Shown here: one piece after another, positions 4,714 through 36,198 of the stretch
Layout of the letters: each line of letters starts with the position of its first letter
Numbering within the stretch: position 1 is the first letter of the stretch
Origin: Candidatus Aminicenantes bacterium
GTDB lineage: Bacteria > Acidobacteriota > Aminicenantia > UBA2199
Assembly: GCA_026393775.1 (NCBI GenBank)
Contig: JAPKZM010000269.1
Span: forward strand, 1-36,922
Direction: 5' to 3'
DNA length: 36,922 nucleotides
Program-made: the position numbers and the translations under genes
The notes under the pieces: model-generated
Database searches by the model: none
What the model saw: only the letters and a program-made list of their open reading frames with translations
Told to the model about the DNA's origin: nothing

Positions 4714-4742
4714 GGTTTCTCCTGACCCAGCCGAGCTGGATA

Positions 4743-4813: not shown

Positions 4814-4868
4814 AAAAAAATATACGTGAATTAACCCCAAATGTCAAATGGTTTTCGTTCGAGGAAAA

Positions 4869-4877
4869 TGTTATACT
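4869..4877 (+). promoter_or_regulatory. Candidate extended -10 element (TGtTATACT) ending 7 nt before the ATG at 4885, implying a leaderless transcript
   Basis: TG at 4869-4870 and TATACT at 4872-4877. No Shine-Dalgarno sequence lies between it and the start codon. Confidence 0.35.
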
Positions 4878-4884
4878 TTCATCG

Positions 4885-9733: not shown

Positions 9734-9778
9734 GCTGGGCAGGCTTAGCGCGCATGTCCGAAGCGCAGCCAGCCCGAC

Positions 9779-13079: not shown

Positions 13080-13081
13080 GG

Positions 13082-14350: not shown

Positions 14351-14353
14351 TAC

Positions 14354-18232: not shown

Positions 18233-19077
18233 GCAATCTTGGTTACCCACAGGTCGATTTGCTTTTCTTCCTGCAAAAAACGGCCGGGGCGTGCCAACCA
18301 ATGCCGCAGAGACTGGCAGGCGGCAAACATATGGCGGGTTGGTTCCGGCGTGGCGGATGTTCTGGAGATACTGGTTGCGTACGGGAGTTCTCGGACCAGG
18401 GAGATGATCTGTCTTTCGGTGATCCAGTTGAGCTCGTGCAGAGCGGTTAAAGGACGGCCCAGAAATTTCAAATAGAGGGCGGCGATGTTCTTGTTCATCT
18501 TCGGCCAGAAAAAGATTCCATAGTGGGGCTCAAAAAAACCACTGTAGTCCGGAGCGCGGACATATAGAACCCCGCCCGGTTTCAAAACCCGCAGCATCTC
18601 ACTCAGGCATTGCCTGACATCACGTACATGCTCCAGGGTCTGGAACGTGGTGACCAGTCCGAAATGGGCATCCGGAAAGGGAAGAGCCTCGCCCCAGCCG
18701 GGGACAAGCCTCGGCCGATAGGTTGCGGGGTATCCTGAGGCCGCAATCTTCTTGGAAAAATATTGCTGCTTCCAGGATTCGGGCTCCACTCCCCAGACGT
18801 CGCGACCGAGATGCAGGCCGTGCAGGAGGAAGGTGCCGCAACCGGCAGCTATATCCAATATCCTTTCTTTCCCTGGCAAGCGCTCACGGATGACACTCCA
18901 GCGTCCGTCGTAGTTGTCCCTGTCGTTGAACCAATTGTTCGTGATATGGGAAATACGGTCGGGGTCGTCGTTTCCCGAATAGGCTCGTATGCCTTGCAGG
19001 ATGCGTTCGCGCAATTCATGCCATAACTCCCGCTCCATTGGGTTCAACGGATTCGGTGCTGGTGGCGATACGTTCAT
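18229..19077 (-). CDS. Class I SAM-dependent methyltransferase
   Basis: Motif I is ILDIAAGCGTFLL, and the post-I and motif III region reads LRVLKPGGVLYV. Confidence 0.8.
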   Translation of the reverse strand: MNVSPPAPNPLNPMERELWHELRERILQGIRAYSGNDDPDRISHITNNWFNDRDNYDGRWSVIRERLPGKERILDIAAGCGTFLLHGLHLGRDVWGVEPESWKQQYFSKKIAASGYPATYRPRLVPGWGEALPFPDAHFGLVTTFQTLEHVRDVRQCLSEMLRVLKPGGVLYVRAPDYSGFFEPHYGIFFWPKMNKNIAALYLKFLGRPLTALHELNWITERQIISLVRELPYATSISRTSATPEPTRHMFAACQSLRHWLARPGRFLQEEKQIDLWVTKIA

Positions 19078-19784
19078 TTTGGCCCGGAGATCGCTGGCTT
19101 ACGGGCTATGACGACGTACGCCCAGGTCCATTTTTCGTTGCGATGCAGTTTCTCCAGGGCCAGAAAGAACAGGTTATTAAAGGCAGTGCATAGCGAAATA
19201 AAGGGCCAGAAAATTCCCCACTTGAAACTGTTCAAATAATAATTGAATTCACTTCCGAAGGTCACGAAAAAACCTGAAAGGGCCTTGATCTCGAGCACCT
19301 CGAACCCGGCTTTGGCAAAAATGTGGTCGATGCCGTAGCGGGTAAAACGGAAAAAATCGCGCGGCTCCTCGTGCAAATGCCAGGTCTGTGGGGCGGTGAA
19401 TACCGCCGTGCCGCCGGGTTTGAGCACGCGCAATGCCTCCCGCAGCGCTGTTTCCGGTTCTTCCAGGTGTTCGAGCACCGATGTGCACAGAACGCAGTCG
19501 AACTCGCCGTCGGCCGCGGGCAGCGCGTACGCCGTGCCGGTGCGGTCGATCGCCGAGTGATCGTGTGAGCTGCCGGCATGATCGACACCGACATAATGTT
19601 CAACAAAGCGGCCGACCAGGTCGCTTTTCCACTTGTTTCCGCAACCGATGTCGATCAGGTTGCCATGGAAGTGGCTGGCTGCGGCGGCTTCGATCTGGGC
19701 GCCGGCCCTTCGGATTACCAACCAGCCGGGATGGCTCAGTGGGTAACGGGCATAATAGCGCCGGCTCGGATTTTTAACAGCCAT
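19074..19784 (-). CDS. Class I SAM-dependent methyltransferase
   Basis: Motif I is LIDIGCGNKW. Also present are FDCVLCTSVLEHL and LRVLKPGGTAVFT. Confidence 0.8.
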   Translation of the reverse strand: MAVKNPSRRYYARYPLSHPGWLVIRRAGAQIEAAAASHFHGNLIDIGCGNKWKSDLVGRFVEHYVGVDHAGSSHDHSAIDRTGTAYALPAADGEFDCVLCTSVLEHLEEPETALREALRVLKPGGTAVFTAPQTWHLHEEPRDFFRFTRYGIDHIFAKAGFEVLEIKALSGFFVTFGSEFNYYLNSFKWGIFWPFISLCTAFNNLFFLALEKLHRNEKWTWAYVVIARKPAISGPK

Positions 19785-20743
19785 TAACGGAGATTTCCAA
19801 TCGGTTGTGGGTCGTTGCCGTCAGACAACCTGGATGCTCGTGTGTTCCGGTCGGCGAGCAGTTCCTGCAGTATGCATATCAATTTCTCCTGCTCGGCGTC
19901 TGCGGGTTCGTGCCGCTTTTCGGGGAAGGATGCGACGGCGGGATTTTTCTCGCGCGTACCCGGGCAACGCTGCCGGATTGCGCTGATCAGCACTTCCGGG
20001 TCCCGGCAAAAATCGTCGTAGGGGACATGCAGGACCCGGGCCGGGTCGATCTGCCTGAGGTCTTCGTTCATTTTTTCCTGGATGTCGATGAGTTGGCGCG
20101 GGATCTGCTCGACGACCGGCAAGTGGCGGATTTCCTCGAAACAGCGGGGAACGATGGAGAACCAGCGTGAGCCGTCGGGGCTTAGCTTGCGCCTGCCGAC
20201 CAGCACCGAAATGGCGACATCGGGCAGCGAACGCTCGACGACCAGGAAATGGGCGTTCGGGAAAATGTGGGCAAGTATGTTCAAGCGCAACAGGTGCTTG
20301 ACGTTCTTGTTCATGAAGGGGGCATCGGCAAAGATATTCTGCATCCGCAGGATGGTCCGCCGTACTGTCTCCAAATGAGACGCGGGCAGATCGCTGACCT
20401 CCTGGTAGCGATCGATGTTGAAGTAGTGGCCCCAGAAGGCACCGGCTTCGCGCGGAGCCATGGGGCCCCGACTGCGGCCGTAATCGCTGCGGAAGTCAGA
20501 CTGGTATGCAGGATGGAACCACCGCTGCCAGCGGCTTACCGTGCATGGCGCCAACGGGAAACGGCTTACGCCGTTCGTGAAGTAGGCCACATCTAGTCTG
20601 TGGACGATATACTGACTGACCAAGGTAGTGCCTGTCCGCGGAAGGCCGGTCAGGAAAAGTTGAGTCGAACCGCAATCAAAGGCGTGGGTTCGCTCCCATT
20701 TCTCCATTTGGGACAGCAGCCGGCTTCTCAACCCGAACAGCAT
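19784..20743 (-). CDS. PAPS-dependent sulfotransferase family protein
   Basis: The 5'-PSB loop is FLTGLPRTGTTLVSQYI. The 3'-PB-like segment is FPNAHFLVVERSLPDVAISV. The track ORF runs to 21109, but its first 122 aa overlap the upstream methyltransferase and look non-protein-like. The ATG at 20743 lies 1 nt after the upstream stop. Confidence 0.75.
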   Translation of the reverse strand: MLFGLRSRLLSQMEKWERTHAFDCGSTQLFLTGLPRTGTTLVSQYIVHRLDVAYFTNGVSRFPLAPCTVSRWQRWFHPAYQSDFRSDYGRSRGPMAPREAGAFWGHYFNIDRYQEVSDLPASHLETVRRTILRMQNIFADAPFMNKNVKHLLRLNILAHIFPNAHFLVVERSLPDVAISVLVGRRKLSPDGSRWFSIVPRCFEEIRHLPVVEQIPRQLIDIQEKMNEDLRQIDPARVLHVPYDDFCRDPEVLISAIRQRCPGTREKNPAVASFPEKRHEPADAEQEKLICILQELLADRNTRASRLSDGNDPQPIGNLR

Positions 20744-20744
20744 T

Positions 20745-21566
20745 TTAGCCCCTGCGGACGGCGAACAGGATATTGTTCTCCGGACCATGCATCGGGTTGC
20801 GATGCCGACGCACCTGTTCGATATGCAAATGATGGCGGCCCAGCAGGCGCCGCCAGAAAAAGACGGAACGTACACGTTTGTCAACCAACAGTGGGCTACG
20901 ATCGGAGACATTGCGGGTTTCGGTCCACGAGGAAAAATTGTCGCTGCGGTGGAACTGGGTGTTCTGGTTGATCCAGCCGAAATATCCGCTGATGATAAAG
21001 ATCCCGCCAGGGCGAAGCCGAGCAGCCAGGTGCTCGACCGCTCGCTCCAGTTCCGCATCGTCCACGATATGGAACATGACTCCGATCGCGCTGACCAGGT
21101 CAACCGCATCAGGGAGCGGCCCGGCGCTGGCGACGTCCTGGTTAATAACCGTTACCGGGGAAGAATGAAAGCGTTCCTGCAGGCGACACGCGGCAACCGT
21201 TGATATTTCTATCGCTGTCACCTGCTCGGCGTGGAAAGTATTGAGATAAAAATCGGTCCAGTGACCGGTTCCCGCTCCGATGTCCAACACATGGCTGAGC
21301 GGTAGCGCCCCTGCTCGAACGGCCATGAATTCGATTATGGCGTTTTCAACCTGGTTGTAATGGTAGCGCACCAGCAGCGGTTGGGCATCGGGCGATACGG
21401 TATGCCCATCGGAGTTGCTGTCCGTCAAAGAGTAATAAGATTCGAAGAATTCCTTGGCCCGATACGCGTGAACGGATCTTCGGCGGTAGCGCAGGGGCAG
21501 TAGGTAGGTTTTGGCGATGTGATAGGGTAGAAGTCGGCAGAGCGCGTTATAGGCTTTTTTTAACAT
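20745..21566 (-). CDS. Class I SAM-dependent methyltransferase
   Basis: Motif I is VLDIGAGTGHWTDFY. Also present is LRPGGIFIISGYF. I chose the start at 21566 (MLKKAYNAL) because a GAGGAA SD precedes it, while the longer ORF overlaps the upstream gene. Confidence 0.75.
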   Translation of the reverse strand: MLKKAYNALCRLLPYHIAKTYLLPLRYRRRSVHAYRAKEFFESYYSLTDSNSDGHTVSPDAQPLLVRYHYNQVENAIIEFMAVRAGALPLSHVLDIGAGTGHWTDFYLNTFHAEQVTAIEISTVAACRLQERFHSSPVTVINQDVASAGPLPDAVDLVSAIGVMFHIVDDAELERAVEHLAARLRPGGIFIISGYFGWINQNTQFHRSDNFSSWTETRNVSDRSPLLVDKRVRSVFFWRRLLGRHHLHIEQVRRHRNPMHGPENNILFAVRRG

Positions 21567-21576
21567 TTCATGTTCC

Positions 21577-22578
21577 TCAGTGGCGGATCCTTTCCAGCAC
21601 TCGGTGCAACACAGTCCGCCGCACCACCAAAGGTGCCTGTCGTTGCTGGGTGGCGAACGTTTGTTTGAATCGTCGTGTCCCCTGCAGCGACCCGCTGGGG
21701 TTGAAGTCATAAACCATGAAGCCGGTGGTGCTGGCATGTTCGATCATTTGCATCGTCTGCCAGTTGCGCACGCCGAGGACGAAGGCATCCGGGTCGTAGG
21801 CTGCCAACCATTCCACGGCATGACGGTTGTGGTAGAAATTAACACTTCCACCGACCAGCTTTTCGTCATGATACGCCAGCCATAATCGGCAGGATTCCGG
21901 GGCGAGATCCTGCAGGGCCCAAAACAGCTCATCCGGGTATGATAGGGTAGCCTTTTCACCCCAGCGTGAAATGGCGCGGCGGTAGAGCCCGATGAACGCC
22001 GTCCATTCGGTTGCAGCAACAGCTTGGCGAACGGCGATGCCGGCACGTTCTCCTTTGTGGATCTGTTTCCGACAGCTGTAGCATACGTGTTCAAGCAATC
22101 CGCCATTGCGACGTAGATCTTTCAAGTCAAGCGTCTCGCTGCTGTCCTCGCGCAATGTCCAAAGCCCCAGCCAATTTTTTGTGAGGGCATACAAGGCATC
22201 CGCCAGCAGGGCTGCGAAAGGCTCGTACGGAGTGAGTCGCCAGGTCAGTGAGTATCGCCGTGCCAATCGGAGGACCGCTGCCAGGAGATGTTCAAGAGTC
22301 ACTCCAGAGCCGTAAAGTGCCCCACCGTATGTCCCCGCTGCTGACATGACCAGTTCCTGGACTAGTCCCCGGAATCGCTGTCTGGAGGAGAATGGCAGCA
22401 CCAGATGTTGCCCGTCCGAAAAGTCGCAGCGAAGAGCTCCGGATTCGAGCCTTCCGAAAGCATCCCACATTTTGGCCCATGCTCGGGTGTGAAAAAAAGT
22501 TGCATGGGGGCAATTGCGGGCGGCCTCATCCCACTCGGCGCCAGTGGCCGGTCGGACACCCAGTAATCGTGGTGTCAT
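21577..22578 (-). CDS. FemAB-like / Acetyltransf_6 GNAT-fold protein (acyl or aminoacyl transferase)
   Basis: 333 aa. The N-terminus has ...CPHATFFHTRAWAKMWDAFG. The layout is two-lobed and the C-terminal region reads AVEWLAAYDPD...GFMVYDFNPSG. This resembles the FemAB-related proteins found in EPS loci. Confidence 0.55.
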   Translation of the reverse strand: MTPRLLGVRPATGAEWDEAARNCPHATFFHTRAWAKMWDAFGRLESGALRCDFSDGQHLVLPFSSRQRFRGLVQELVMSAAGTYGGALYGSGVTLEHLLAAVLRLARRYSLTWRLTPYEPFAALLADALYALTKNWLGLWTLREDSSETLDLKDLRRNGGLLEHVCYSCRKQIHKGERAGIAVRQAVAATEWTAFIGLYRRAISRWGEKATLSYPDELFWALQDLAPESCRLWLAYHDEKLVGGSVNFYHNRHAVEWLAAYDPDAFVLGVRNWQTMQMIEHASTTGFMVYDFNPSGSLQGTRRFKQTFATQQRQAPLVVRRTVLHRVLERIRH

Positions 22579-23733
22579 TTAGGACAAGATGCCCCGCACC
22601 GCCGCGATCACGTCGGCCACGTCTTCATCGCTGAGTTTTGGCGACAGCGGCAGGGAGACCGTCCGCTCCGATATCCACTTGGCGTTGGGGAAGTCGCCGG
22701 GTTTATAACCGTAGGTTCTTCGGTAATACGGGTGCAAATGCAGGGCGATATAATGGACACCGATGCCGATATTCTCGCGTGTCATCCGCTCGAGGAACCG
22801 GTCGCGGCTGATGCGCAGTCGCTCGGTATCCAGCAACAGCGTGTAGAGATGACGGGCGTGCTTCATGCCGCTCGTCACTGGGGCGGGCAGGAACACCGGT
22901 AGTTCTCGGAATGCGTCATCGTAGGCCCGCCAGATTTTTTCGCGCCGGCACCAATAGCGTTCGATGCGTGGCAACTGGTGGATGCCCAGCGACGCCTGCA
23001 GGTCGGTCATGTTATATTTGAAGCCTGCGTACACTACCTGGTAATGCTTGAACCCCTCATCTGAGTAACGCTTCCATGCGTCCTTGCTCATGCCGTGCAG
23101 GGCGAGCACCTTGATCTTGTCGGCATACTCAGAGCGGTTGGTGACGACCATCCCGCCTTCGCCGGTGACGATGTTCTTCGTCACGTAAAAGCTGTAGCAG
23201 CCGAGGGCGCCGAAACGGCCCACTTTTTTCCCTTTGAATTCGGCTTCGATGGCATGGGCGCAATCCTCAACGATGTCGAGGTTGTGCCGGCGGGCAATAT
23301 CGCAGATGGCATCCATCTCGCATGGCCGGCCGGCAAAATGCACCGGGATGATGGCCCGAGTCTTCTTCGTGATTTTCCGCTCTATGCCCTGAGGGTCGAT
23401 GTTCATGGTCTCGCGCCGGCAATCGGCCAGAACCGGCCGGCCGCCGGCGTGGATAACAGCGTTGGCTGTGGCGGCGAAAGTCATCGCCGGGACGATGACC
23501 TCGTCCCCCGGGCGGATGCCTAGTGCGAGCATGGATAGGTGCAGAGCCGCCGTACAGGAGTTGAGCGCCAAGGCATAGCGAGATCCATTGAAGGTTCGGA
23601 ACATTTCCTCGAATCGGTGGACTTTCGGTCCGGTGCCTATCCAGCCGGAACGCAAGGATGCCACTACTTCGGCGATCTCCGCTTCTTCAATGATGGGGCT
23701 ACCGAAAACCAAAAATTTCTTCCTTTGTGGCAT
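22579..23733 (-). CDS. DegT/DnrJ/EryC1 PLP aminotransferase, ArnB/SpsC-like (nucleotide-4-keto-sugar aminotransferase)
   Basis: Key segments are KKFLVFGSPIIEEAEIAEVVASLRSGWIGTGPKV, AIIPVHFAGRPCEMDAI..IVEDCAHA, the catalytic Lys in SFYVTKNIVTGEGG, and FKYNMTDLQASLG. By eye it aligns closely to E. coli ArnB. A GTG at 23778 would add 15 aa encoded by atypically AT-rich DNA, so I prefer the ATG at 23733. Confidence 0.85.
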   Translation of the reverse strand: MPQRKKFLVFGSPIIEEAEIAEVVASLRSGWIGTGPKVHRFEEMFRTFNGSRYALALNSCTAALHLSMLALGIRPGDEVIVPAMTFAATANAVIHAGGRPVLADCRRETMNIDPQGIERKITKKTRAIIPVHFAGRPCEMDAICDIARRHNLDIVEDCAHAIEAEFKGKKVGRFGALGCYSFYVTKNIVTGEGGMVVTNRSEYADKIKVLALHGMSKDAWKRYSDEGFKHYQVVYAGFKYNMTDLQASLGIHQLPRIERYWCRREKIWRAYDDAFRELPVFLPAPVTSGMKHARHLYTLLLDTERLRISRDRFLERMTRENIGIGVHYIALHLHPYYRRTYGYKPGDFPNAKWISERTVSLPLSPKLSDEDVADVIAAVRGILS

Positions 23734-23774
23734 CTGATTTATTCTGTTATTAAAATTATTCAGTCGCCAATGGC

Positions 23775-24884
23775 TCACACACCCTTGATGGCTGCCACGA
23801 TCTCTTCTTGGGTTTGCGGTTCCAGGTAGGGGTGCATGGGCAGACTGAAGATCTCATCGGCAATTTTTTCGGCGACCGGGAAATCGCCCTGGCTGTAGCC
23901 CAGGCCGGCGAAAGCCTCCTGCAGATGCAAGGGGATGGGGTAGTAGACGGCGGTCGGAATGCCGTTCTCGCGAAGTTTTTTAACGATCTCGTCGCGGCGT
24001 GGATGCAGCACCGAATACTGCGCCCAAGCCGAAACATTTTCCTGCAGCACCCGCGGCACCTTGACGGTTCCTGCCAGCAGCTGATTGTAGCGGCCGGCGA
24101 CCTCCTGGCGTAGTTCGATCTCTTCTGGAAATATCTCCATTTTGGCCAGCAGGACGGCGGCTTGCAGGGAATCCATGCGGCCGTTGATGCCCAGGCGCAC
24201 GTTGGTGTATTTGTCCACCCCCTGGCCATGAACGCGGATGGAGAGCAGCTGGTCGCAGATATCTTTTTTAGAGGTGAAAATCATGCCGCCGTCACCATAG
24301 CAGCCCAATGGCTTGGCCGGGAAAAAGCTGGTGGCGGCCACCCTGGCCAGGGAGCCGGCCTTTTTGCCGTTCTGCTCGGCGCCGAAGCTTTGGGCGGCGT
24401 CCTCCAAAACGAACAGGCCGTATTTTTCGGCGATGGCCTGAATGGCCCGATATTCGGCGGGCTGGCCGAAAAGGTCCACCGGGATGATGCCCCTGGGTTT
24501 CAGGCGGCCTTCGGTCACCGTCTTGGCGATCGCTCTCTCCAGCTTGAGCGGGTCGATGTTAAAGGTTTCGTTGTCGATGTCGACGAAGACCGCCGTCGCG
24601 CCCAGCAATCCGATCACCTCGGCGGTGGCAATGAAGGTGAAGGTGCTGGTGAAAACGGCGTCGCCGGGGCCGATATTCTCCACCATCAGCGGCATGAGCA
24701 GGGCATCGGTGCCGCTGGCGACGGACAAGGCATGGGGCATGTTCACGAACGCGGCCAACTTTTCCTCGAGTTCGCGGATTTCCGGCCCCAGGATATACTG
24801 GCCGTGGTCGAGGACTTTTTTGATCCTTTCTTCGAGCTGCCGGCGGATCCTTTTTTGCTGGGCAGCCAGATCGATGAAATGCAT
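23775..24884 (-). CDS. DegT-family PLP aminotransferase, WbpE/WlbC-like (UDP-2-acetamido-2-deoxy-3-oxo-sugar 3-aminotransferase type)
   Basis: Key segments are MHFIDLAAQQKRIRRQLEERIKKVLDHGQYILGPEIRELEEKLAAF, IIPVDLFGQPAEY, VLEDAAQSFGA, TSFFPAKPLGCYGDGG and NGRMDSLQAAVLL. It matches my recollection of P. aeruginosa WbpE along its whole length. AGGAGA SD; first gene of the long operon. Confidence 0.85.
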   Translation of the reverse strand: MHFIDLAAQQKRIRRQLEERIKKVLDHGQYILGPEIRELEEKLAAFVNMPHALSVASGTDALLMPLMVENIGPGDAVFTSTFTFIATAEVIGLLGATAVFVDIDNETFNIDPLKLERAIAKTVTEGRLKPRGIIPVDLFGQPAEYRAIQAIAEKYGLFVLEDAAQSFGAEQNGKKAGSLARVAATSFFPAKPLGCYGDGGMIFTSKKDICDQLLSIRVHGQGVDKYTNVRLGINGRMDSLQAAVLLAKMEIFPEEIELRQEVAGRYNQLLAGTVKVPRVLQENVSAWAQYSVLHPRRDEIVKKLRENGIPTAVYYPIPLHLQEAFAGLGYSQGDFPVAEKIADEIFSLPMHPYLEPQTQEEIVAAIKGV

Positions 24885-25143: not shown

Positions 25144-25168
25144 TGACAAAAATTGGCATTTTTTGTGA
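25144..25168. promoter_or_regulatory. Imperfect palindrome; candidate enhancer-binding-protein (UAS) site for the pilin promoter
   Basis: TGACAAAAA-N7-TTTTTGTGA, with 8 of 9 arm positions complementary. It is centred about 100 nt upstream of the predicted sigma54 start site. Confidence 0.3.
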
Positions 25169-25231
25169 CTTTTTTTGGTAAATTCCGGGCGGTTAAAAAT
25201 TGAAATCGGCCTGCAGACAGGCGATTTTATT

Positions 25232-25246
25232 TGGCAGACAAATTGC
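25232..25246 (+). promoter_or_regulatory. sigma54 (RpoN) -24/-12 promoter of the pilin gene
   Basis: TGGCAG-ACAAA-TTGCT compared with the consensus TGGCAC-N5-TTGCW. GG is at 25233-34 and GC at 25245-46. It sits about 33 nt upstream of the ATG, with an AAGGAGG SD at 25266-25272. Confidence 0.6.
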
Positions 25247-25278
25247 TTATAAAAAGTAGATCCTTAAGGAGGTTCTGA

Positions 25279-25734
25279 ATGAACAAGAAAGGTTTTACAT
25301 TGATTGAATTGCTGATCGTTGTGGCCATCATCGGTATCGTGGCCGCCATCGCGATTCCAAACCTGTTGGTCGCGTTGCAGAAAGGCAAGCAGAAAGCGAC
25401 GATGGGCGACATGAAGTCGGTCGGCACCGCCTTGGAAGTCTATACCACCGACAATTCGATGGTTCCCAATGCCGATCTCATCACTCTCAACACGGCCACC
25501 TATTTTATCCCCTTCTACATCAAGGTCCTGCCGTTGGTAGATTCCTGGGGAACGGCTTGGGATTATGCATCCGGGGCCACCCCCAGCGACCAGTATTCGG
25601 TCACCTCTTGGGGCCGTGACAAGGCAGCCGCAACGATTGGGACCATGTATCAAGTGACCAAAATTGGCGATTTCAACAACAACATCACCTTCTCCAATGG
25701 TCAGTTCACTCTCGGGCCGATAGTCAAAAAATAA
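25279..25734 (+). CDS. Prepilin-type (class III signal peptide) protein, GspG-like pseudopilin/pilin
   Basis: MNKKG|FTLIELLIVVAIIGIVAAIAIPNLL carries the prepilin peptidase site and Glu at +5. The GspG-like globular part reads ...LPLVDSWGTAWDYASG...VTSWGRDKA. Strong SD. Confidence 0.9.
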   Translation: MNKKGFTLIELLIVVAIIGIVAAIAIPNLLVALQKGKQKATMGDMKSVGTALEVYTTDNSMVPNADLITLNTATYFIPFYIKVLPLVDSWGTAWDYASGATPSDQYSVTSWGRDKAAATIGTMYQVTKIGDFNNNITFSNGQFTLGPIVKK

Positions 25735-25757
25735 TCGCGTCCCGTTCTTTTTTCACA

Positions 25758-25792
25758 AGCGGCTGGAAGTTTTTTCCAGCCGCTTTTTTTTT
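25758..25792 (+). terminator. Rho-independent terminator after the pilin gene
   Basis: A perfect 11-bp stem (agcggctggaa / ttccagccgct) with a 5-nt loop, followed by T8. Confidence 0.85.
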
Positions 25793-25880
25793 ACTGCTGA
25801 ATTACTCGGTCAGCGGGGTCAAGTATTTATTTTTCCTGCGCCTGGCTTATTTTTTATTCCTTTTCCTTTTAGCCGCTTTT

Positions 25881-27197
25881 TTGAGCCGCTTCCGGCTGCA
25901 TGACATCCTGGCGCCGCTGAGCGGCGGCATTGCCTTGATCGTCTTCGTGTACGGGCTCATCCAGAAATTTTTTATTTTCCCCTGGATCCTGATGCAATCC
26001 GGCTGGGACATATCGCCTTATTCAATGGCGTTGCGCAAGCAGGTCGCGTCGGGGCGCATTTTCGCCATCTTTCCCTTGCCGACATTGTACGCCATGGTCT
26101 GCGGTTTGCTGCTGATTTGTGTCACACACTATTTTTTTAAGGCCAGCGGCTGGCGCAAAGGATACTGGGCCGTCCTGTTCCTGCTGGGCGGGGCCAACCT
26201 GTTTTTTACCCAGTCGTTCGGCGGCATCATTTTCTTTACCGTCGGCGTGCTGTTTTACCTTTTCGTCTCCGGCATATTCAAGATCAAGTACCTGGCCCCC
26301 CTGCTCATGGTCCTGGCCCTGCTTTTTTCCCTGGTCGTGGCCATGCGCTTCTCCGAGGCCCGGGAATTGAAGCCCATTACGTTGCGTTTTGCCAACTGGC
26401 TCCAGGCCGGGCGAGTCATCGCCACGGCGCCGCTGCTGGGCACCGGCTTGGGCAATTATGAAACGGCCGTGCCGGCGCAGGTTTATCCGGGCGAACCCGC
26501 TTCCATATATGCCCATAACTTTTTTTTGCAGCTGACGGCTGAAATCGGTGTCCCCTGGCTGCTTCTCCTGCTGTTGCTCGCCGTGCCCTGGCTGAAGAAC
26601 AATTGCCGCAAGATTCTGCTACGTGAAAATGCCCTTTTTACCGCCCTCTGCATCCTGATTCTGTTCTTCAATCTTTTCGATGTGGGTAATTACTTCTTCG
26701 CGGCCGGGATAGGTTTTGCCGTCGCGTTCTCGCAGCTGTTCGATTTGAGCGGCCGCACGCGTTGGCTCTATTTTTGGCCGGTGGCTGTTTTAGCCGTCGT
26801 GCTGCTGGTCAATGAGATCGGCATTGACCGGCAAAAGACGGCTGATCTATGGCTGGTCCGCAAAGAGCTCGACAAGGCGGAACGCGGCTATCGCCGGGCT
26901 CTGCGCATCAACCCCTATTCGTACCGGGCCTGGCAGGGCTTGGCCGTTATTGCCCAGAAAAAAGGTGACTCCGCCGCGGCGGAGCGGATTTACGGAAAAA
27001 TCCTGGCCATATATCCTGGACAGGCTTATGCCAATTTCATGTTCTCGCAAGCCGCTTTCCGGCGGGAAGCCTATCTGACCGCCCTGGTTTACGCCAGACG
27101 GGCGGCGGAGGCGAACAAAAAAAATCATGAATACCAGAGGTGGCATGAATTTATTAAAACCCATCTTGCGGATCGGCTCCCGCTTTCAGGAAATTGA
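25881..27197 (+). CDS. Wzy_C-family membrane protein (O-antigen ligase / O-oligosaccharyltransferase / polymerase family) with C-terminal TPR repeats
   Basis: About 10-12 TM helices. The Wzy_C loop motif is GTGLGNYE...IYAHNFFLQLTAEIGVPW. The C-terminal TPR-like repeats include AERGYRRALRINPYSYRAWQGLAVIAQKKGD and AAAERIYGKILAIYPGQAYANF. The start is uncertain: TTG at 25881 has no SD, and the next ATG is at 25992. Confidence 0.75.
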   Translation: MSRFRLHDILAPLSGGIALIVFVYGLIQKFFIFPWILMQSGWDISPYSMALRKQVASGRIFAIFPLPTLYAMVCGLLLICVTHYFFKASGWRKGYWAVLFLLGGANLFFTQSFGGIIFFTVGVLFYLFVSGIFKIKYLAPLLMVLALLFSLVVAMRFSEARELKPITLRFANWLQAGRVIATAPLLGTGLGNYETAVPAQVYPGEPASIYAHNFFLQLTAEIGVPWLLLLLLLAVPWLKNNCRKILLRENALFTALCILILFFNLFDVGNYFFAAGIGFAVAFSQLFDLSGRTRWLYFWPVAVLAVVLLVNEIGIDRQKTADLWLVRKELDKAERGYRRALRINPYSYRAWQGLAVIAQKKGDSAAAERIYGKILAIYPGQAYANFMFSQAAFRREAYLTALVYARRAAEANKKNHEYQRWHEFIKTHLADRLPLSGN

Positions 27198-28977
27198 ATT
27201 TTCGGTTCTCCTGGCCTGGGCATTGCTCTTCCCGGCCAAGCAATCCTACCTCTATTATTTCGGCTTCACCGCGCTGCTGGTTTTGTTCTCCCTGAAAAAA
27301 ATCTTCGCCCTGAAAAATATTTCCTTCATGCGCGTTTCGGTGTTCTTGTTGTTGTTCAATGCCCTGTTGATTGGGTGCACTTTTTTTTCCCCTCAACCCG
27401 GCAAATCGCTCTTGTTCGTCTGCGACATTTTCCTGCTTTCGTTTTGGTTTTTTCTGTTCGACATAGAAAAGATCGACGTGAGCCGCTACTTGCGTTTGCT
27501 GGCCTACGTCATATCGATCGCTTCCCTGGCGATCGTCATTTTATTCGCATGGCAAACCGGCCGCAATCCGCTGGGGACGGTTTTTAAAAATCCAATCCTG
27601 CAGGGCATCGCGGCGGCGCTGGCCGCCCTGTTCTTTCTCCATGCCCTCTTGCAGAAATTCGCAGCCAGCGACCTGGCGCTGCTGCTCATCAACACGGGGG
27701 CGGTGATCGTCAGCGCTTCCAAGGCCGCTGCCCTTGGCTTGGCATTGTTCTCAGCCGCCCTGATCATAGCCAGGAAAAGGAGATGGCTGATCTTTTTCCT
27801 TGGGCTCGTGCTCTTGCTGGCGCTGGTTCCCAATCCTCTGCGGCGTATGGTCGGCCATTCGTTGGAGCATGATCCCTATGTGTTGAATCGCCTCGACATC
27901 TGGAACATGTCGGCCCGCATGTTCCGCGCCAATCCCTGGACCGGCATCGGGCCCGACCTGTTCAGCGAGGCGGCCAGGCGTTTTAACTTTCCCCAGGAAA
28001 AAGGCCCGGCCCGCTATGCCAAACTGCCCGAATCACCGCACAGTGATTATTGGAAGGTGATCGTCGAGACCGGCCTGGCCGGCTTGATCTTTGTCCTGTT
28101 GTTTCTGTTTTTCACCATCCGCTGTATGCTGGCGCCGCCCTGGTTCGACCTGCCCAAGGTGTTGTTGGCCTTTCTGTTGCTGCAGATGCTGTTTTTCAAC
28201 TTCATTTTCAATATTTTTTTCCTGTCGGTCATGCTTTTCCTGCTGTATGCTTTTTTTTGGCGGCGTTTGTTTTTTGTTTTGCTGACTCCCGCTTTCAAGG
28301 TTTTTTTGTCGGGATTACTGGTTTTGGTTTTTATCCTTTTTTATTTGTTGCCTTTTTGCGCTGACCGTATGCTGCAAACAGCAGCCGTGGAAAAAGACAT
28401 TGTCCGGCGTTTCGCCTTGTTGAACCATGCCGCTCTCTTCAGTCCGCTGGATGAACGAGTACTCGTGGCGCGCGCTCAGACTCTACGCGGGTTTTTCAAA
28501 GCTTCAGGCAGCCTGGAGGCGTGGGTGGCGGCCTGGGAAGATCTGCGTTCCGCCCAAAGAATAAACCGCAACAGCAGCGAGGCTTGCGTTTTAGAAGCGG
28601 CGTTATTCGGGGATATCCTGGAAAAAAGGATCACGTACTCCGCTCTGGCGGAGGAAATGCTGGCTCCGCTGCGCCGGGCCCAAGAGCTCGAGCCGTTCAA
28701 CCCTTTCTTACGCTTGCAGCAAGCGATGATTTTAAACGAGTTTGACCGCCTTCCGGAGGCGCGAAGCCTGGCGAGTGACGCCCTGGACCTGGAACCGGAC
28801 TACGTCGCGGCCCTGTTCTTCGTGCGGCGCCTGGAAGGTTCTCCGCAGGGGGACGCCACTTTCCAGAGGCGCATCGCGCGGATTCAAGCCAAAGCGGAAA
28901 CCTTGCGGGTCCAACCCGGCTCTTATCTTTACGATCTGTTCCGCTTGCCGGCGGGCGCAGGCAGCGCTGGGCGCTGA
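27145..28977 (+). CDS. Second Wzy_C-family membrane protein with a C-terminal TPR domain
   Basis: The Wzy_C motif is WTGIGPDLF...PHSDYWKVIVETGLAGL. There are many TM helices and a C-terminal helical-repeat (TPR-like) domain of about 200 aa. The ORF opens at 27127. The ATG at 27145 follows GAGGTGG. Either start overlaps the previous gene by 53-71 nt. Confidence 0.75.
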   Translation: MNLLKPILRIGSRFQEIEFSVLLAWALLFPAKQSYLYYFGFTALLVLFSLKKIFALKNISFMRVSVFLLLFNALLIGCTFFSPQPGKSLLFVCDIFLLSFWFFLFDIEKIDVSRYLRLLAYVISIASLAIVILFAWQTGRNPLGTVFKNPILQGIAAALAALFFLHALLQKFAASDLALLLINTGAVIVSASKAAALGLALFSAALIIARKRRWLIFFLGLVLLLALVPNPLRRMVGHSLEHDPYVLNRLDIWNMSARMFRANPWTGIGPDLFSEAARRFNFPQEKGPARYAKLPESPHSDYWKVIVETGLAGLIFVLLFLFFTIRCMLAPPWFDLPKVLLAFLLLQMLFFNFIFNIFFLSVMLFLLYAFFWRRLFFVLLTPAFKVFLSGLLVLVFILFYLLPFCADRMLQTAAVEKDIVRRFALLNHAALFSPLDERVLVARAQTLRGFFKASGSLEAWVAAWEDLRSAQRINRNSSEACVLEAALFGDILEKRITYSALAEEMLAPLRRAQELEPFNPFLRLQQAMILNEFDRLPEARSLASDALDLEPDYVAALFFVRRLEGSPQGDATFQRRIARIQAKAETLRVQPGSYLYDLFRLPAGAGSAGR

Positions 28978-29658
28978 TCAGTCGCTTTCAGCTTCCAAAC
29001 GGATGAAAATATAGGGATTGCGATAGTCGTTGGTACGAATCTTGACCAGGTTGTTGAAAGCTCCTTTGGCGAACGGGGTGAAATTGAGGGTGATCTCGGT
29101 GGTCTTCTTGGCGCCCACCAGATTGGTTTTGAACTGCAGGGAGACCTCCGGGCTGCAGCTGACCTCGATGATACGCAAATCATTGGTCCCGCTGTTGCTC
29201 AGATTGAGCTTGCGGGTGTAGGTTTTGCCGACTGCCACTGCGGTAAAATCGATGCGCTCCGGCTTGAGGTCGGCCTGGGCGAAATCCTTGATGAGCACGG
29301 TGCCGCTGAAGGTCAGGCGGACTTCGGCGGTTTCGGCGTCATTGCTGGTCACGGTGATGGTCTTGATGACCTTGCCGTTATAGCCGCTGGTATTGAATTT
29401 GCTCGCGATGGTACCCTTTTCGCCGGCTTTGTATTCCTTCTTGGCCAATCCGGCTGTGGTGCAGCCGCAGGAAGGGACGATATTCTTAATGATCAGGAGG
29501 TCGGAACCCGCGTTTTCAAATTCAAAATTGACGTCCACCATCTGGCCGCTTTCCACTTCGCCAAAATCAACAAACATGCTTTTAAATTTAATCACCGGCT
29601 TGGCGAACATCTGCACTGACGCCAGCAGGATAGACAGTCCCAGTATGCACTTTTTCAT
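28978..29658 (-). CDS. DUF1573 domain-containing secreted protein
   Basis: Has a signal peptide (MKKCILGLSILLASVQMFA) and the DUF1573 hallmark IVPSCGCTT, followed by a second Ig-like repeat. The start at 29658 forms an ATGA overlap with the lpxD stop and follows a GGAGG SD. The stop abuts the convergent gene's stop. Confidence 0.8.
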   Translation of the reverse strand: MKKCILGLSILLASVQMFAKPVIKFKSMFVDFGEVESGQMVDVNFEFENAGSDLLIIKNIVPSCGCTTAGLAKKEYKAGEKGTIASKFNTSGYNGKVIKTITVTSNDAETAEVRLTFSGTVLIKDFAQADLKPERIDFTAVAVGKTYTRKLNLSNSGTNDLRIIEVSCSPEVSLQFKTNLVGAKKTTEITLNFTPFAKGAFNNLVKIRTNDYRNPYIFIRLEAESD

Positions 29659-30677
29659 TTTGCCTCCCATTCTTTGATCTTGGCCTCTATTTTCTGCAGT
29701 CTTTCTTTCCAGGCGCCGAGGTTCCTCAGCAGGACCATGCTTTTTCTCCAGGCGCTGATTTCCTGGTGGGGAATGCCGGCAACGATCATTTTGCTTTTGA
29801 TCGATCCGCTGACGCCGCTCTTGGCGGCGATCATGACACCGTCGGCGATTTTAACATGGTCGGCGATTCCCACCTGGCCGCCCATGACCACTTGGGCGCC
29901 GATTTCGGTGGAACCGGAAATGCCGGTCTGCGAAGAAATGACCGTATTTTTGCCGATGCGGACATTGTGCCCGATTTGGACCAGGTTGTCCAGCTTCGTA
30001 TTTTCGGCCAGGGCAGTTTCCTCGATGGTCGAGCGGTCGATGCACGTATTGGCCCCGATTTCGCAGCCGGAGGCGATAAGCACCTTGCCTTTTTGCGGGA
30101 TTTTTACCGGCGCCCCGTCCAGGCCATGGCCGTAGCCGAAACCGTCGGCGCCGATGACGGCTCCAGGATGAATGATCACCCGGTCGCCGATTTCCACGTT
30201 TTCGCGGATGACGACCCGGGAATAGATCAGGCAATCGCGGCCGATCGTGACGTCGCGGTAGATGACCACTCCAGCGTGGATTTCCGTGTTTTCGCCGATC
30301 CGGCTGTTTTCGCCGACATAGGAGAAGGGGCCGATGCGGACATTCTTCTCCAGCCGGGCCTTTTCCGAAATGCTGGCGTTGGCGGCGATGCCCGAGCAGA
30401 AAGGCCGCTGCGGATGAAAGAAATCCAGCAGCCTGGCGAAAGCCAGCTGGGGATCGGCGACCAGCACCCGGTTCGGGTAGTTATAGGAACTATCGGCGGC
30501 TACGATCAGTGCTCCGGCGTGGATCATCGACAGGTCCACATCTTCCTTGTCCTTGGCGATGAAAGCGATTTCATCGGCAGTGGCTTTTTTCAAGGACTGG
30601 ATGCCGTTGATCTCGAGGTCGGGATCTCCGTGCAGCTGGCCGGAAACGAGCTCAGTGATCTTTTTTAGGTTTGGCAT
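29655..30677 (-). CDS. lpxD: UDP-3-O-acylglucosamine N-acyltransferase
   Basis: The LpxD-type N-terminal domain reads MPNLKKITELVSGQLHGDPDLEINGIQSLKKATADEIAFI. Long hexapeptide (left-handed beta-helix) repeats and a C-terminal helix follow. Confidence 0.9.
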   Translation of the reverse strand: MPNLKKITELVSGQLHGDPDLEINGIQSLKKATADEIAFIAKDKEDVDLSMIHAGALIVAADSSYNYPNRVLVADPQLAFARLLDFFHPQRPFCSGIAANASISEKARLEKNVRIGPFSYVGENSRIGENTEIHAGVVIYRDVTIGRDCLIYSRVVIRENVEIGDRVIIHPGAVIGADGFGYGHGLDGAPVKIPQKGKVLIASGCEIGANTCIDRSTIEETALAENTKLDNLVQIGHNVRIGKNTVISSQTGISGSTEIGAQVVMGGQVGIADHVKIADGVMIAAKSGVSGSIKSKMIVAGIPHQEISAWRKSMVLLRNLGAWKERLQKIEAKIKEWEAK

Positions 30678-33766: not shown

Positions 33767-36091
33767 TCATGGCGGCAGGCGGGCCGCTGAAAAGCATGTA
33801 ACCGCCGCCGTCCCCCCCTCGGGACCGAGTTCGATGACATGATCGGCGCTAGCGATCAGCGACAAATTGTGCTCGACCGCCACGATGGTGTTGCGTTTTT
33901 TCAGCAAGCGCTCAAATAGCTTCTGGATGACCGCGATATCGTAGGCGTGGAGACCGAACGACGGCTCGTCCAGCAGGAACAAGATATCGGTTTTTTCCTG
34001 ATCCAGGTACTTCAGCAGCCTGAGCTTCTGCAGTTCGCCCGTGGACAGGCAGCTGATTTTTTCCCCCAGTTGCAGGTAGCCCATGTCGTTGTCCTGCAGG
34101 TTCTTCAATGTGTTCAGCACCTGGGGAAGATCGGCGCCAAGATCGCGGACGAATTCATCGATGGTCAGGGCCAGAACGGCAGCGATGTTTTTATTTTTAT
34201 GGGTGATCTTTAAAATATCGGGAGCAAAGCCGCTGCCATAACAATGGCGGCAGGTGGTTCTGACCGTTGGCAGGAACTGCATTTCAATCTCCAGATAACC
34301 CCGGCCCTTGCATTCGGGGCAGCGCCCCATGGGAGAATGGAACGAGAAATGGCCGGGGAGATACCCCAGCAGGCGGCTTTGCTTCAGCGAGGCGAAAAAT
34401 TCCCGCAGCGGAGGAAAAATGTCTAAAAACCCGGCGATGTTCGTGCTGCCGCGCCTCGCGCCGACCCCCGGATCGAGATGAACGACCTCTTTGTGGCCGG
34501 AGTTCGCTCTGTGCTTCAGATAAATTTCATCATACAGCAGAGTGCTTTTGCCCGCGCCGCTGACTCCGGCAATGACGGTGAAAGCCCGACGCGGCATCCG
34601 GAAATCAAAATGCTTCAAGTTGTGGCTGCTGGCGTCCCTGCAGGTCCAGAATTCCATCTCAACCCTTTTTCCGGCCGGCCTCTCCCTTGCCAGCCGGAAG
34701 TACTTCTGGGTGGTTGTCGATTGGGAGTTGAAAAAATCTTCCTTACTGCCGGAATAGACGATCTGCCCGCCCGCGCTGCCCGCGCGCGGTCCCAGCTCGA
34801 TGACGTGATCGGCATTGCGGATCAGGTGGGGGTTGTGCTCGACCAGGACGACGGTGTTGTCATTATCCTTTAGTTTTTTCAGAAAAAAATCCATTTTTTC
34901 ATAGTCGGCGGGATGCAGGTCGGCGGAGGGCTGATCGATGATCAACAGGGAATCGGAGAGGGTGGAGCCCATGATGAAAGCCAGGTTGATGCGCTGGTAT
35001 TCGCCCTTGGAAAGGGTAAAGGTGGGGCGGTTCAGATGGATATAATGAAGCCGGCTGCGCCGCAAATACTCCAGCTTGGCCGCGATCTCCGCGAAGACCT
35101 CGGGGGAGATCTTATTCCGGTAGTTATTGCCGTCCAAATCCTTGATCCAGGTGTTGGCGGCGCCGATGGTCATGGCCAGCAGGTCGGCGATGGTCCGGCC
35201 CTTGATCCGGAACGATGTGGCCAAACGGCTGAAGCGGCTGCCGCCGCACTCGCGGCAGGGGGCGGTCCCGGAGGCGGTTTCGTCCACTTCCCCCAGGCCT
35301 TTGCAAACCGGGCAGGCGCCACGGGCGCTGTTGAACGAAAAAAGATTTTCGTCCGGGCTTTCATATTCCTTTTGGCAGCGGGGGCAGAAGAGCACGACCG
35401 GGAAATGCAGGGGCCGGCGGTCATGGAACACGGTAAGCGTATTGCGGCTCATCGCCATGGCGCCATCGACGGCTTCAAAAATCCGGCTGCGGTTCTCGGC
35501 CCGGTTTTCCAGTTCGTCGACCAGGACCAGCATCGGCGCATTCCGGCTTTGGCTGTCGATGGCCGTTTTGCGGCCTTGGCGGACCTGAAAATAGTAACCG
35601 CGGTTGATCAAAAAAGAAATATCGCCCTGATAGGAAAAACAGATTCGCAGCATGCCGGCCTTGAGCGTCAGCAGCGCCTGGATGATCTCATCGATGCTGA
35701 ATTTCTTGATTTCGGCGCCGCAGCCGGGGCAGTAAAAATCGGAGATTTTAGCGTACAGGATGCGCAGGTAATCAAAAATATCCGAGGCCGTGGCCACGAT
35801 GGAGCGGGGATTCCGCACCGGTTTCTTCTGACGAAAGGCGATGGCCGGCGGCAGGTTGTCGATGCGATCGATGTCGGGCTTGTCGATCCTGTCGAGGAAC
35901 TGGCGGATATAGGGGGAAATCGATTCGATGTAGCGGATGTAGCCTTCGGCGTAAAGGGTGTGGAAGGCCAGCGACGATTTACCGGCGCCGCTGACGCCGA
36001 CGACGGCAGTTATTTTCCCCAGCGGGATGGCGGCGTCGATATTTTTCAAGTTGTTGGTGCGGATACCCCTGAGGATGATGTTTTTTTCCAT
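33767..36091 (-). CDS. uvrA: UvrA-family ABC ATPase paralogue (atypical, about 794 aa if a frameshift at 33812-33818 is repaired; the C-terminal 34 codons then continue to 33708)
   Basis: Walker A motifs are GVSGAGKSSLAF (site 1) and GVSGAGKSTLLY (site 2). Zn modules are CPGC/CPRC, CPVCKGLG/CRECGGSR and CPECKGRG/CRHCYGSG. The GPRAGSAGG and GPEGG ends are present. After GPEGG the current frame gives non-homologous TAAVTCFSAARLPP*, whereas the frame reached by adding one G gives DGGGYMLFSGPPAAMMKDKKSLTGHYLKKYLKNT*. Confidence 0.85.
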   Translation of the reverse strand: MEKNIILRGIRTNNLKNIDAAIPLGKITAVVGVSGAGKSSLAFHTLYAEGYIRYIESISPYIRQFLDRIDKPDIDRIDNLPPAIAFRQKKPVRNPRSIVATASDIFDYLRILYAKISDFYCPGCGAEIKKFSIDEIIQALLTLKAGMLRICFSYQGDISFLINRGYYFQVRQGRKTAIDSQSRNAPMLVLVDELENRAENRSRIFEAVDGAMAMSRNTLTVFHDRRPLHFPVVLFCPRCQKEYESPDENLFSFNSARGACPVCKGLGEVDETASGTAPCRECGGSRFSRLATSFRIKGRTIADLLAMTIGAANTWIKDLDGNNYRNKISPEVFAEIAAKLEYLRRSRLHYIHLNRPTFTLSKGEYQRINLAFIMGSTLSDSLLIIDQPSADLHPADYEKMDFFLKKLKDNDNTVVLVEHNPHLIRNADHVIELGPRAGSAGGQIVYSGSKEDFFNSQSTTTQKYFRLARERPAGKRVEMEFWTCRDASSHNLKHFDFRMPRRAFTVIAGVSGAGKSTLLYDEIYLKHRANSGHKEVVHLDPGVGARRGSTNIAGFLDIFPPLREFFASLKQSRLLGYLPGHFSFHSPMGRCPECKGRGYLEIEMQFLPTVRTTCRHCYGSGFAPDILKITHKNKNIAAVLALTIDEFVRDLGADLPQVLNTLKNLQDNDMGYLQLGEKISCLSTGELQKLRLLKYLDQEKTDILFLLDEPSFGLHAYDIAVIQKLFERLLKKRNTIVAVEHNLSLIASADHVIELGPEGGTAAVTCFSAARLPP

Positions 36092-36125: not shown

Positions 36126-36198
36126 TACGCCCGGAGAGACTCGAACTCCCAACGCACAGCTTCGAAGGCTGCCGCTCTATCCTTTGAGCTACGGGCGC
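36126..36198 (-). tRNA. tRNA-Arg (anticodon TCG)
   Basis: The minus strand folds by hand into a cloverleaf: GCGCCCG-TA-GCTC-AAAGGATA-GAGC-G-GCAGC-CTTCGAA-GCTGT-GCGTT-GGGAG-TTCGAGT-CTCTC-CGGGCGT-A. It has a 7-bp acceptor stem, a GG in the D-loop and a TTCGA T-loop. The anticodon loop is CT-TCG-AA. No CCA is encoded. Confidence 0.9.

Follow-up and report, generated by a model that had tools for sequence, protein, structure and literature searches.

The plus strand of positions 25232-28977 of contig JAPKZM010000269.1, from a bacterium of the Aminicenantes lineage, carries a prepilin gene followed by the genes of two polytopic membrane proteins, here called W1 and W2. The window, by which we mean the whole stretch of DNA analyzed, is this 36,922-bp contig of one metagenome-assembled genome (MAG). 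On balance, we favor a reading in which W1, W2, or both would be pilin-directed O-oligosaccharyltransferases (O-OTases), with the lipid-linked glycan of a variable neighboring operon as donor, a view that comes from sequence comparison and structure prediction. The design of such a module is already known; new are the lineage, the enzyme families, and the fact that two paralogues bearing tetratricopeptide repeats (TPRs) are always paired.

Along the plus strand, the order is a sigma54-type element, a ribosome-binding site, the prepilin gene, a hairpin, W1, and W2. An initial annotation, made by a model from the letters of the sequence and a list of open reading frames (ORFs), had described the prepilin, the hairpin, the two Wzy_C proteins, and their loop motifs, all of which we found in place. 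These features, together with the operon that may supply the glycan, are as follows.

25232-25247, plus strand: sigma54-type -24/-12 element TGGCAG-ACAAA-TTGCT, an exact pattern match 31 nt 5' of the pilin ATG
25266-25272, plus strand: Shine-Dalgarno sequence AAGGAGG of the pilin gene, read from the sequence
25279-25734, plus strand: prepilin, 151 amino acids (aa), with Pfam N_methyl and T2SSG matches
25757-25794, plus strand: putative intrinsic terminator/attenuator between the pilin gene and W1, a 13-bp stem (hairpin 25757-25785) plus a T9 run
25794-27197, plus strand: W1, predicted membrane enzyme of the Wzy_C/WaaL fold, 467 aa from CTG 25794, ending in a 3-TPR domain (Pfam, AlphaFold2)
27145-28977, plus strand: W2, predicted membrane enzyme of the Wzy_C/WaaL fold, 610 aa, of which the C-terminal ~190 form a TPR domain (Pfam, AlphaFold2, Foldseek)
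6720-24884, minus strand: divergent operon, probably for glycan assembly (Pfam and NCBIfam matches)

Results

The prepilin gene, W1, and W2 are conserved as a unit

A search of 5.8 billion proteins yielded 114 homologues of W2 at 35-99% identity, nearly all of about 609 aa, and 214 homologues were found for W1 in the protein search. With the W2 profile, E-values jumped from 1e-145 to 6e-22, and because of this abrupt drop we regard W2 as a sharply bounded orthologous family. The order pilin, W1, W2 was present in six of six metagenome or MAG contexts (L001, L003, L004, and L006-L008), with W2 identities of 78, 60, 52, 43, 36, and 37%. A scan of one genome per GTDB species then gave 33 full-length W2 orthologues, all of them in MAGs of the Aminicenantes type, some with bin labels that are evidently wrong. 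Of the species loci, 26 include 1.5 kb or more of DNA upstream, and in every one of these a prepilin gene stood directly 5' of W1, ending 1405-1550 nt before the start of W2.

The synteny holds down to 35-37% W2 identity. W1 lies within about 60 nt of the pilin gene and on the same strand in the window and in all relatives with enough flanking sequence, and a 53-nt overlap between W1 and W2 was kept in all loci examined. The initial annotation had named a failure of pilin adjacency in relatives as grounds for giving up its interpretation; the adjacency held, in the 26 species loci as well as in the metagenome loci. The triad was also kept in seven loci (L007, L008, L031, L032, L035, L036, and L038) that have no DegT, DUF1573, lpxD, or brkB within 5 kb by tblastn, and elsewhere the glycan operon beside it has been exchanged. 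The conserved unit is therefore pilin-W1-W2, not a glycan operon with its Wzy_C genes.

Two further ideas were tried and dropped. One was that the pilin cassette also occurs outside Aminicenantes; the three distant Wzy_C or Wzy_C-TPR proteins whose gene neighborhoods were inspected did not lie beside pilins. The other was the link to exosortase/PEP-CTERM systems that the initial annotation had raised; no exosortase was found in any locus, and the sole trace was a weak NCBIfam match of the W1 TPR region to PrsT.

Gene models of W1 and W2

The open frame at 25881-27197 matches the Pfam families Wzy_C (45 bits) and TPR. Its first canonical start, the TTG at 25881, gives the 438-aa protein that is annotated at NCBI. 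However, W1 homologues are 467-487 aa long, and the 29 residues encoded 5' of this TTG are conserved in homologues down to 41% identity, with S7, L12, R16, and F20 invariant, so that W1, as judged from these alignments, has its start very probably near 25794. An ATG directly 5' of the hairpin is found in distant relatives, and a TTG directly after it in close ones; at 25794-25799, the window has CTG CTG where most of the close relatives have that TTG. A canonical W1 start is missing from both places in the window and in L004/L029, L010, L011, L033, and L037, which points to non-canonical initiation or to a truncated enzyme.

The open frame of W2, at 27127-28977, matches Wzy_C with 67 bits. Because the homologues have the length given above, and because a start at 27145 yields the 53-nt overlap with W1 of all relatives, W2 most likely starts at this codon (Met7) and not at the first ATG, 27127.

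W1 and W2 share a WaaL-like core and a predicted periplasmic TPR domain

The Wzy_C domain with its conserved catalytic His and Arg positions is present in both W1 and W2, as are, within the pair, the loop motifs IYAHNFFLQLTAEIG and PHSDYWKVIVETGLAG quoted in the initial annotation. An hhalign comparison gave a probability of 97.5% for their homology, with 18% identity over 317 columns; by this measure, the two are old, distant paralogues. In W1, R198, R207, H241, and D296 are invariant in 44 homologues, the first three being the counterparts of the W2 Arg and His. In W2, R249 is invariant and H299 occurs in at least 90% of 41 homologues, and these two residues align with the Arg and His positions of WaaL from C. 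metallidurans (7tpg), which the W2 family profile matched with E = 2.9e-10 (residues 44-324). The homology of W2 to WaaL was found through profile-sequence search only. When the W1 and W2 profiles were aligned by hhalign with E. coli K-12 WaaL and the O16 polymerase WbbH, nothing significant was returned (E = 0.19-0.76).

D296 of W1 sits 55 residues past H241. E404 of PglL follows H349 by 55 residues, as does E379 of PglS its H324, and both glutamates have been proposed to be important (PMC3643930, PMC12800693). From spacing only, D296 would correspond to PglL E404 and PglS E379.

Both proteins were modeled with AlphaFold2 at good confidence (W1, pLDDT 85.5 and pTM 0.80; W2, pLDDT 89.7 and pTM 0.87). 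The C-terminal ~110 aa of W1 are modeled as a three-repeat TPR that matches CTPR3 in Foldseek (TM-score 0.82), and the C-terminal ~190 residues of W2 as a TPR solenoid for which Foldseek finds its likeness in OGT and MamA. The statement in the initial annotation that both proteins end in TPR-like repeats is right for both, with the qualification that Pfam detects the repeats of W1 only and those of W2 are seen only in the predicted structure. In Foldseek comparisons with the PDB, TPR matches dominated for W1 and W2 alike, with no membrane-core match among the matches listed.

The predicted topology of W1 is six transmembrane (TM) helices, or five if the TTG is the start, a catalytic loop at 185-242, and then four TM helices. 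For W2 it is nine TM helices, a loop at 228-300, and four more, 13 in total. Clusters of Lys and Arg fall on the predicted cytoplasmic loops of both proteins. The four TM helices after the catalytic loop would place the C-terminal TPR domain of W1 and of W2 in the periplasm, the location about which the initial annotation had asked.

A conserved promoter and terminator frame the pilin gene

The sigma54 pattern occurs twice in the window against 0.4 matches expected, and two matches were reached in 7 of 100 shuffles, so that the count within the window alone is not unusual. A sigma54 promoter is supported instead by conservation across loci: TGGCA-N6-TTGCW stands 27-47 nt 5' of the ATG in 34 of 51 related pilin genes, those of the most distant loci included, with a spacer of variable sequence. 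The sigma54 control that the initial annotation had suggested thus gains support from the relatives. Neither rpoN nor a cognate enhancer-binding protein is encoded on the 36.9-kb contig. The GGAGG 5' of the pilin ATG was kept in seven of the seven loci compared. Sigma54-dependent major pilin genes are known, namely pilA of Pseudomonas, Myxococcus, and Geobacter. As in those genes, a putative -24/-12 promoter here precedes what would be a highly expressed pilin; unlike theirs, its globular domain is GspG-like.

In the pilin leader around 25150-25222 (plus strand), a block of sequence AAAATTGGCATTTTTT[G/A]TGACTTTTTTTGG is shared with L001 (6000-6075), and a small inverted repeat, GCCTGCAGACAGGC, lies directly 5' of the -24 element. 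An enhancer-binding protein or integration host factor may bind at these places. The 394-nt leader region gave no match in Rfam, whose sole match in the window is a tRNA.

Downstream of the pilin gene, the hairpin at 25757-25785 has 13 pairs (-24 kcal/mol, z = -4.0) and runs into a stretch of T. Each of the 33 pilin genes located 5' of W1 is followed by a hairpin of -15.6 kcal/mol or stronger and a T-run. The stems of L007, L008, L013, and L032 show compensatory changes, the arms being GCAGCTGGT/ACCGGCTGC in L007 and ACGGCTGGTACC/GGTACCGGCCGT in L008. In all loci (L001, L003, L004, L006-L008, L010-L039, and the window at 25737-25881), this hairpin and T-run lie inside the open W1 frame. The same bases are both a terminator and the code for a hydrophobic N-terminal segment, in which S-G-W and P-A-A come from the stem arms and F-F from the T-run. 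Translational coupling of W1 and W2 is suggested by their 53-nt overlap. We infer from the sequence a design in which a highly expressed subunit is followed by attenuation after the pilin gene and by two coupled membrane enzymes at low level.

The prepilin is probably a major type IV pilin

The prepilin begins MNKKG/FTLIE, with a class III signal peptide and Glu+5, and scores 38 bits against N_methyl and 33 bits against T2SSG in Pfam. It therefore has both the leader (G/F, Glu+5) and the T2SSG-type globular domain of GspG, the major pseudopilin of the type II secretion system (T2SS). Against the GspG equivalog model TIGR01710, it reached 65.2 bits, under the cutoff of 88.85. The gsp operon context of GspG is also missing here: domain scans of the large ORFs of the 37-kb contig found no T2SS or type IV pilus machinery, in keeping with the lone prepilin of the initial annotation. 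The structures in the PDB nearest to its N-terminal helix are Geobacter PilA-N, PulG, Myxococcus PilA, and Thermus PilA4. We conclude that the 151-aa prepilin is probably a major type IV pilin, and we propose it as the glycan acceptor.

Across 47 distinct pilins, residues 1-50 are almost invariant, and three surface loops are hypervariable and often rich in Ala, Pro, Thr, Ser, and Gly. This composition, which is not in itself evidence of modification, fits the preference for disordered Ala-rich regions that has been reported for PglL-type enzymes (PMC12645811). It fits as well the pseudopilin-like pilins of Thermus, which are O-glycosylated on loop serines (PMC7203116). The patch ASGATPSD (aa 97-104), in which the initial annotation saw a likeness to PglL-type acceptor regions, is present in the window pilin. 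It is adjoined on its C-terminal side by the motif YS[VIL]xSxGR(D/N), which we take to resemble a GspG-type beta-strand rather than a sequon.

A second, diverged pilin gene lies 55-136 nt 3' of W2 in about half of the 26 species loci. Loci of this kind are L003 (9893-10348), L004 (9933-10400), L015, L019-L027, L029, L030, and L037, and in several of them the second gene comes with a TGGCA-N6-TTGCT element of its own and encodes a differing C-terminal motif, DGRFTV.P..K. In L001, L010, L011, and L033, two tandem pilin genes are found 5' of W1 instead. The window has one pilin only.

The divergent operon as a candidate glycan source

The operon at 6720-24884 (minus strand) encodes two DegT aminotransferases, a FemAB-like GNAT protein, three methyltransferases, a sulfotransferase, a Wzx-type flippase, four GT4 enzymes, and three large polytopic proteins. 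To judge by this content, it is the probable source of the lipid-linked glycan. Its genes are swapped among close relatives, L001 having an ABC transporter (Wzm/Wzt with Wzt_C, 1-5099) and the window, L003, and L004 a Wzx-type flippase; the first DegT aminotransferase is retained despite the exchange. With this exchange, the operon resembles a hypervariable O-antigen or glycan locus between conserved flanks. On the other side of the module, downstream of W2, the gene of a DUF1573 protein is found together with lpxD, a BrkB-like gene, and genes of ATP synthase.

The three large polytopic proteins are encoded at the distal end of the operon (6720-11797, minus strand) and have little or no family assignment. 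The first (ORF 9779-11797, 672 aa) has a C-terminal TPR. The second (ORF 8255-9733, 492 aa) has only a trace of Wzy_C and may be a Wzy polymerase, and the third (ORF 6720-8258, 512 aa) scores 24.2 bits, exactly the Pfam cutoff, against the TMEM260-like family of protein O-mannosyltransferases. They are further candidates for the transfer of lipid-linked sugars, possibly onto protein.

Comparison with known systems

Four classes of lipid-dependent O-OTases are recognized, TfpO, TfpM, PglL, and PglS, all of which have a Wzy_C domain and depend on a His. The genes of TfpO, TfpM, and PglS each stand next to that of the pilin they modify (PMC9829042, PMC12645811), and 21 of 31 PglL homologues from a motif search adjoin type IV pilin genes (PMC3643930). 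In the reading favored here, the pilin-W1-W2 module would work like pilA-tfpO, comP-pglS, and the pilin-tfpM pairs, but it belongs to none of these classes.

The arrangement of W1 is that of TfpO (PilO; P. aeruginosa 1244 and Acinetobacter) and TfpM (Moraxellaceae), in that a Wzy_C gene with the catalytic His lies directly 3' of the pilin gene on the same strand. At 467 aa, W1 is also within their size range of 420-470 aa (PMC9829042). In contrast, TfpO and TfpM glycosylate a C-terminal Ser or Thr of the pilin (PMC9829042), with which none of the 51 pilins compared here ends. TfpM is without the larger C-terminal periplasmic domain of PglS (PMC9829042), whereas W1 and W2 both carry TPR domains, and a sequence relationship to TfpO or TfpM beyond Wzy_C is undetectable. 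The compact plan of these enzymes is departed from by W1, with its ~110 aa of TPR, and further by W2, with 610 aa and ~190 aa of TPR.

PglS, which acts on ComP in A. baylyi, and PglL of Neisseria and others are enzymes of 520-620 aa that glycosylate an internal Ser and are mostly encoded beside pilin genes (PMC3643930). In its AlphaFold model, PglS shows 13 TM helices and, at the C-terminus, a large domain in the periplasm (PMC12800693), a plan paralleled by the predicted 9 + 4 TM helices of W2 and 6 + 4 of W1. The marks of PglL and PglS, PglL_A and Wzy_C_2, are missing from W1 and W2, and here two paralogues with overlapping genes are fixed together.

As of late 2025, no O-OTase structure had been solved (PMC12800693), and the only solved structure with detectable homology is that of C. 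metallidurans WaaL (7TPG/7TPJ). The TM core and the periplasmic Arg/His loop are shared. However, the solved WaaL has 413 residues and no C-terminal domain, whereas W1 and W2 add a TM helix and a predicted periplasmic TPR, and the N-terminal TM bundle of W1 is reduced. The WaaL plan, about 400-420 aa ending after the last TM helix, is found in neither protein. As for linkage to lipopolysaccharide (LPS) core or O-antigen genes rather than to a protein substrate, which would be expected of WaaL, the picture is mixed: a glycan operon and lpxD adjoin the cassette in most loci, and seven loci have pilin-W1-W2 without them.

Finally, WsfB of Paenibacillus and WsaB of Geobacillus, compared here by description only, are Wzy_C enzymes whose TPR motif either forms the C-terminus (WsfB) or belongs to a second protein encoded next to the enzyme (WsaA/WsaB), and they are predicted to glycosylate a surface structural protein (PMC2943079). 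That protein belongs to an S-layer rather than to a pilus, and the hosts are Gram-positive.

Discussion

Proposed mechanism

In the reading that we favor, a sigma54-dependent promoter and a strong ribosome-binding site would give high expression of a GspG-fold type IV pilin. The intrinsic terminator after the pilin gene would let only a fraction of the transcripts reach W1 and W2, and the 53-nt overlap would couple the translation of the two. The periplasmic Arg/His loop of W1 and W2 would bind undecaprenyl-pyrophosphate-linked glycans, in this case a glycan of amino and methyl sugars that the divergent operon would assemble and flip. One extra TM helix in each protein would put its C-terminal TPR domain in the periplasm, where it could serve as a protein-docking module. 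At least one of the enzymes would then move the glycan en bloc to a Ser or Thr in a surface loop of the membrane-anchored pilin, before assembly. The second enzyme might act on a second pilin, on a second site, or on other periplasmic proteins, or it might be the O-antigen ligase of the cell. A WaaL role for one of the two is possible, and a pair made of one ligase and one O-OTase is compatible with this explanation. The roles of the pilin as acceptor and of the operon product as donor, the attenuation ratio, and the translational coupling are what we infer.

Evidence that weighs against pilin glycosylation

Several observations weigh against this proposal, and the first group concerns the acceptor. 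The pilins compared all end in K, R, Q, N, or L (...GPIVKK in the window), so that there is no C-terminal Ser or Thr to modify, and no conserved acceptor sequon was found across them. ASGATPSD is kept in close relatives only and distant pilins differ, and we have rejected it as the acceptor patch. The markers of known enzymes are missing as well: PglL_A (PF15864) and Wzy_C_2 (PF11846) were found in neither W1 nor W2, even at E <= 5, and NCBIfam matched W1 in its TPR region only and W2 not at all. The periplasmic placement of the TPR domains comes from the helix count of the AlphaFold2 models, a catalytic loop anchored in the periplasm by homology, and the positive-inside rule. All sequences compared are from uncultured MAGs, and the synteny could partly be inherited gene order, all loci being in one lineage. 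The argument that a TPR fusion marks a protein substrate, made in the initial annotation, is weaker than claimed. A C-terminal TPR motif has been noted in PglL and in WsfB (PMC2943079), and Wzy_C-TPR proteins also occur in polysaccharide loci without pilins. Thus, of the interpretation in the initial annotation, the synteny, the periplasmic TPR, and the sigma54 control have stood, and the acceptor patch and the TPR as a sign of protein substrates have not.

Alternative explanations

The alternative that survives best, although we think it unlikely, is that W1 and W2 act on glycolipids or polysaccharides. One would be a WaaL that ligates to lipid A-core and the other a Wzy-type polymerase or a second ligase, with the pilin gene as a neighbor that lends its promoter. 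The remaining evidence against pilin glycosylation speaks for this explanation. Both proteins have the Wzy_C/WaaL fold, and sequence alone cannot separate WaaL from O-OTases (PMC3643930), a caution that the initial annotation had voiced for domain content and with which we agree. In most loci, the cassette lies between an operon of O-antigen type, with Wzx or Wzm/Wzt, and lpxD, a place where one might expect a WaaL. The window has no other clear Wzy_C gene, the match of ORF 8255-9733 being very weak (E = 0.33), and the three distant Wzy_C or Wzy_C-TPR proteins whose contexts were fetched come from polysaccharide loci with no pilin. However, the pilin stays with W1 and W2 in the seven loci that have neither the glycan operon nor lpxD, and across loci the three genes share a promoter, an attenuator, and overlapping frames. 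The extra TM helix and the periplasmic TPR predicted for W1 and W2 are missing from the solved WaaL, and the NCBIfam result, confined to the W1 TPR region, tells against this explanation too.

A second alternative, which we consider improbable, is that W1, W2, or both are general O-OTases of the PglL type that modify many periplasmic or surface proteins, the pilin being merely the most abundant substrate. W2, with 610 aa, is near the 550-600 aa reported for PglL enzymes, whose target sites are internal and lie in disordered regions rich in Ala and Pro (PMC9829042, PMC12645811), and the pilins have no fixed, conserved sequon. Two enzymes could also divide pilin-specific and general roles between them, as in Acinetobacter, where TfpO is found besides PglL (PMC6331429). 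Against this stand the absence of PglL_A and Wzy_C_2 from both proteins and the linkage to the pilin gene, which is absolute here, whereas close linkage to the substrate is not widespread for general PglL (PMC12645811).

A bolder version of pilin glycosylation, to which we give similarly little weight, makes W1 and W2 an obligate two-enzyme machine. The paired periplasmic TPR domains would hold the membrane-anchored pilin while one paralogue extended the undecaprenyl-pyrophosphate-linked glycan in the manner of Wzy and the other transferred it, so that the pilus would be sheathed in a polysaccharide that varies with the operon. Were this so, the product would amount to an O-antigen anchored on pilin, in effect a third mode of surface polysaccharide display, and W1 and W2 would represent two new O-OTase families with new acceptor rules.

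Last, the cassette could be a pilus or pseudopilus accessory module without glycan transfer, in which TPR membrane proteins with an inert Wzy_C scaffold act as pilin chaperones or assembly factors; the TPR proteins PilF and PilW do act in type IV pilus biogenesis, and W1 weakly matches the PilW model TIGR02521 (E = 1e-4), but the catalytic Arg and His and their loop are invariant or nearly so in both families at 35-40% identity, which argues for retained enzymatic activity and makes this explanation very improbable.

Significance

If pilin glycosylation by W1 or W2 is confirmed, two sequence-distinct families would be added to TfpO, TfpM, PglL, and PglS, in a candidate lineage with no cultured members; we found no literature that links Aminicenantes with pilins. 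It would mean that widespread bacteria of sediments and the subsurface make sigma54-regulated, glycan-decorated type IV pili whose glycan varies by strain. The strict pairing of two TPR-bearing paralogues with a pilin would be a natural system in which to study how O-OTases recognize protein substrates, and enzymes with other acceptor and glycan tolerances are wanted for bioconjugate vaccines (PMC9829042, PMC12800693). If W1 and W2 are WaaL and Wzy instead, the locus would be an unusual arrangement of otherwise ordinary LPS genes.

Other genes in the window

The DUF1573/choice-of-anchor D protein is encoded at 28978-29670 on the minus strand, has two Ig-like domains, and ends where W2 ends. 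In most relatives, its gene is kept between W2, or the second pilin gene, and lpxD. The left end of the contig (1013-3951, possibly to 4713, minus strand) encodes an SMC/AAA-type ATPase directly upstream of an S8 subtilase, and a 250-aa ORF without assignment follows. In PADLOC, the ATPase matched mad3 (2e-26) and, more weakly, LmuB and the N-terminal part of GajA/PtuA, and the subtilase matched 'subtilase' (3.8e-28) and IetS (2.5e-10); by these matches, the two genes are a candidate IetAS-like anti-phage defense pair. Toward the other end, a tRNA-Arg(TCG) at 36126-36198 (minus strand) adjoins the gene of a 774-aa UvrA-like double ABC ATPase (33767-36091, minus strand), a neighborhood that is kept in relatives.

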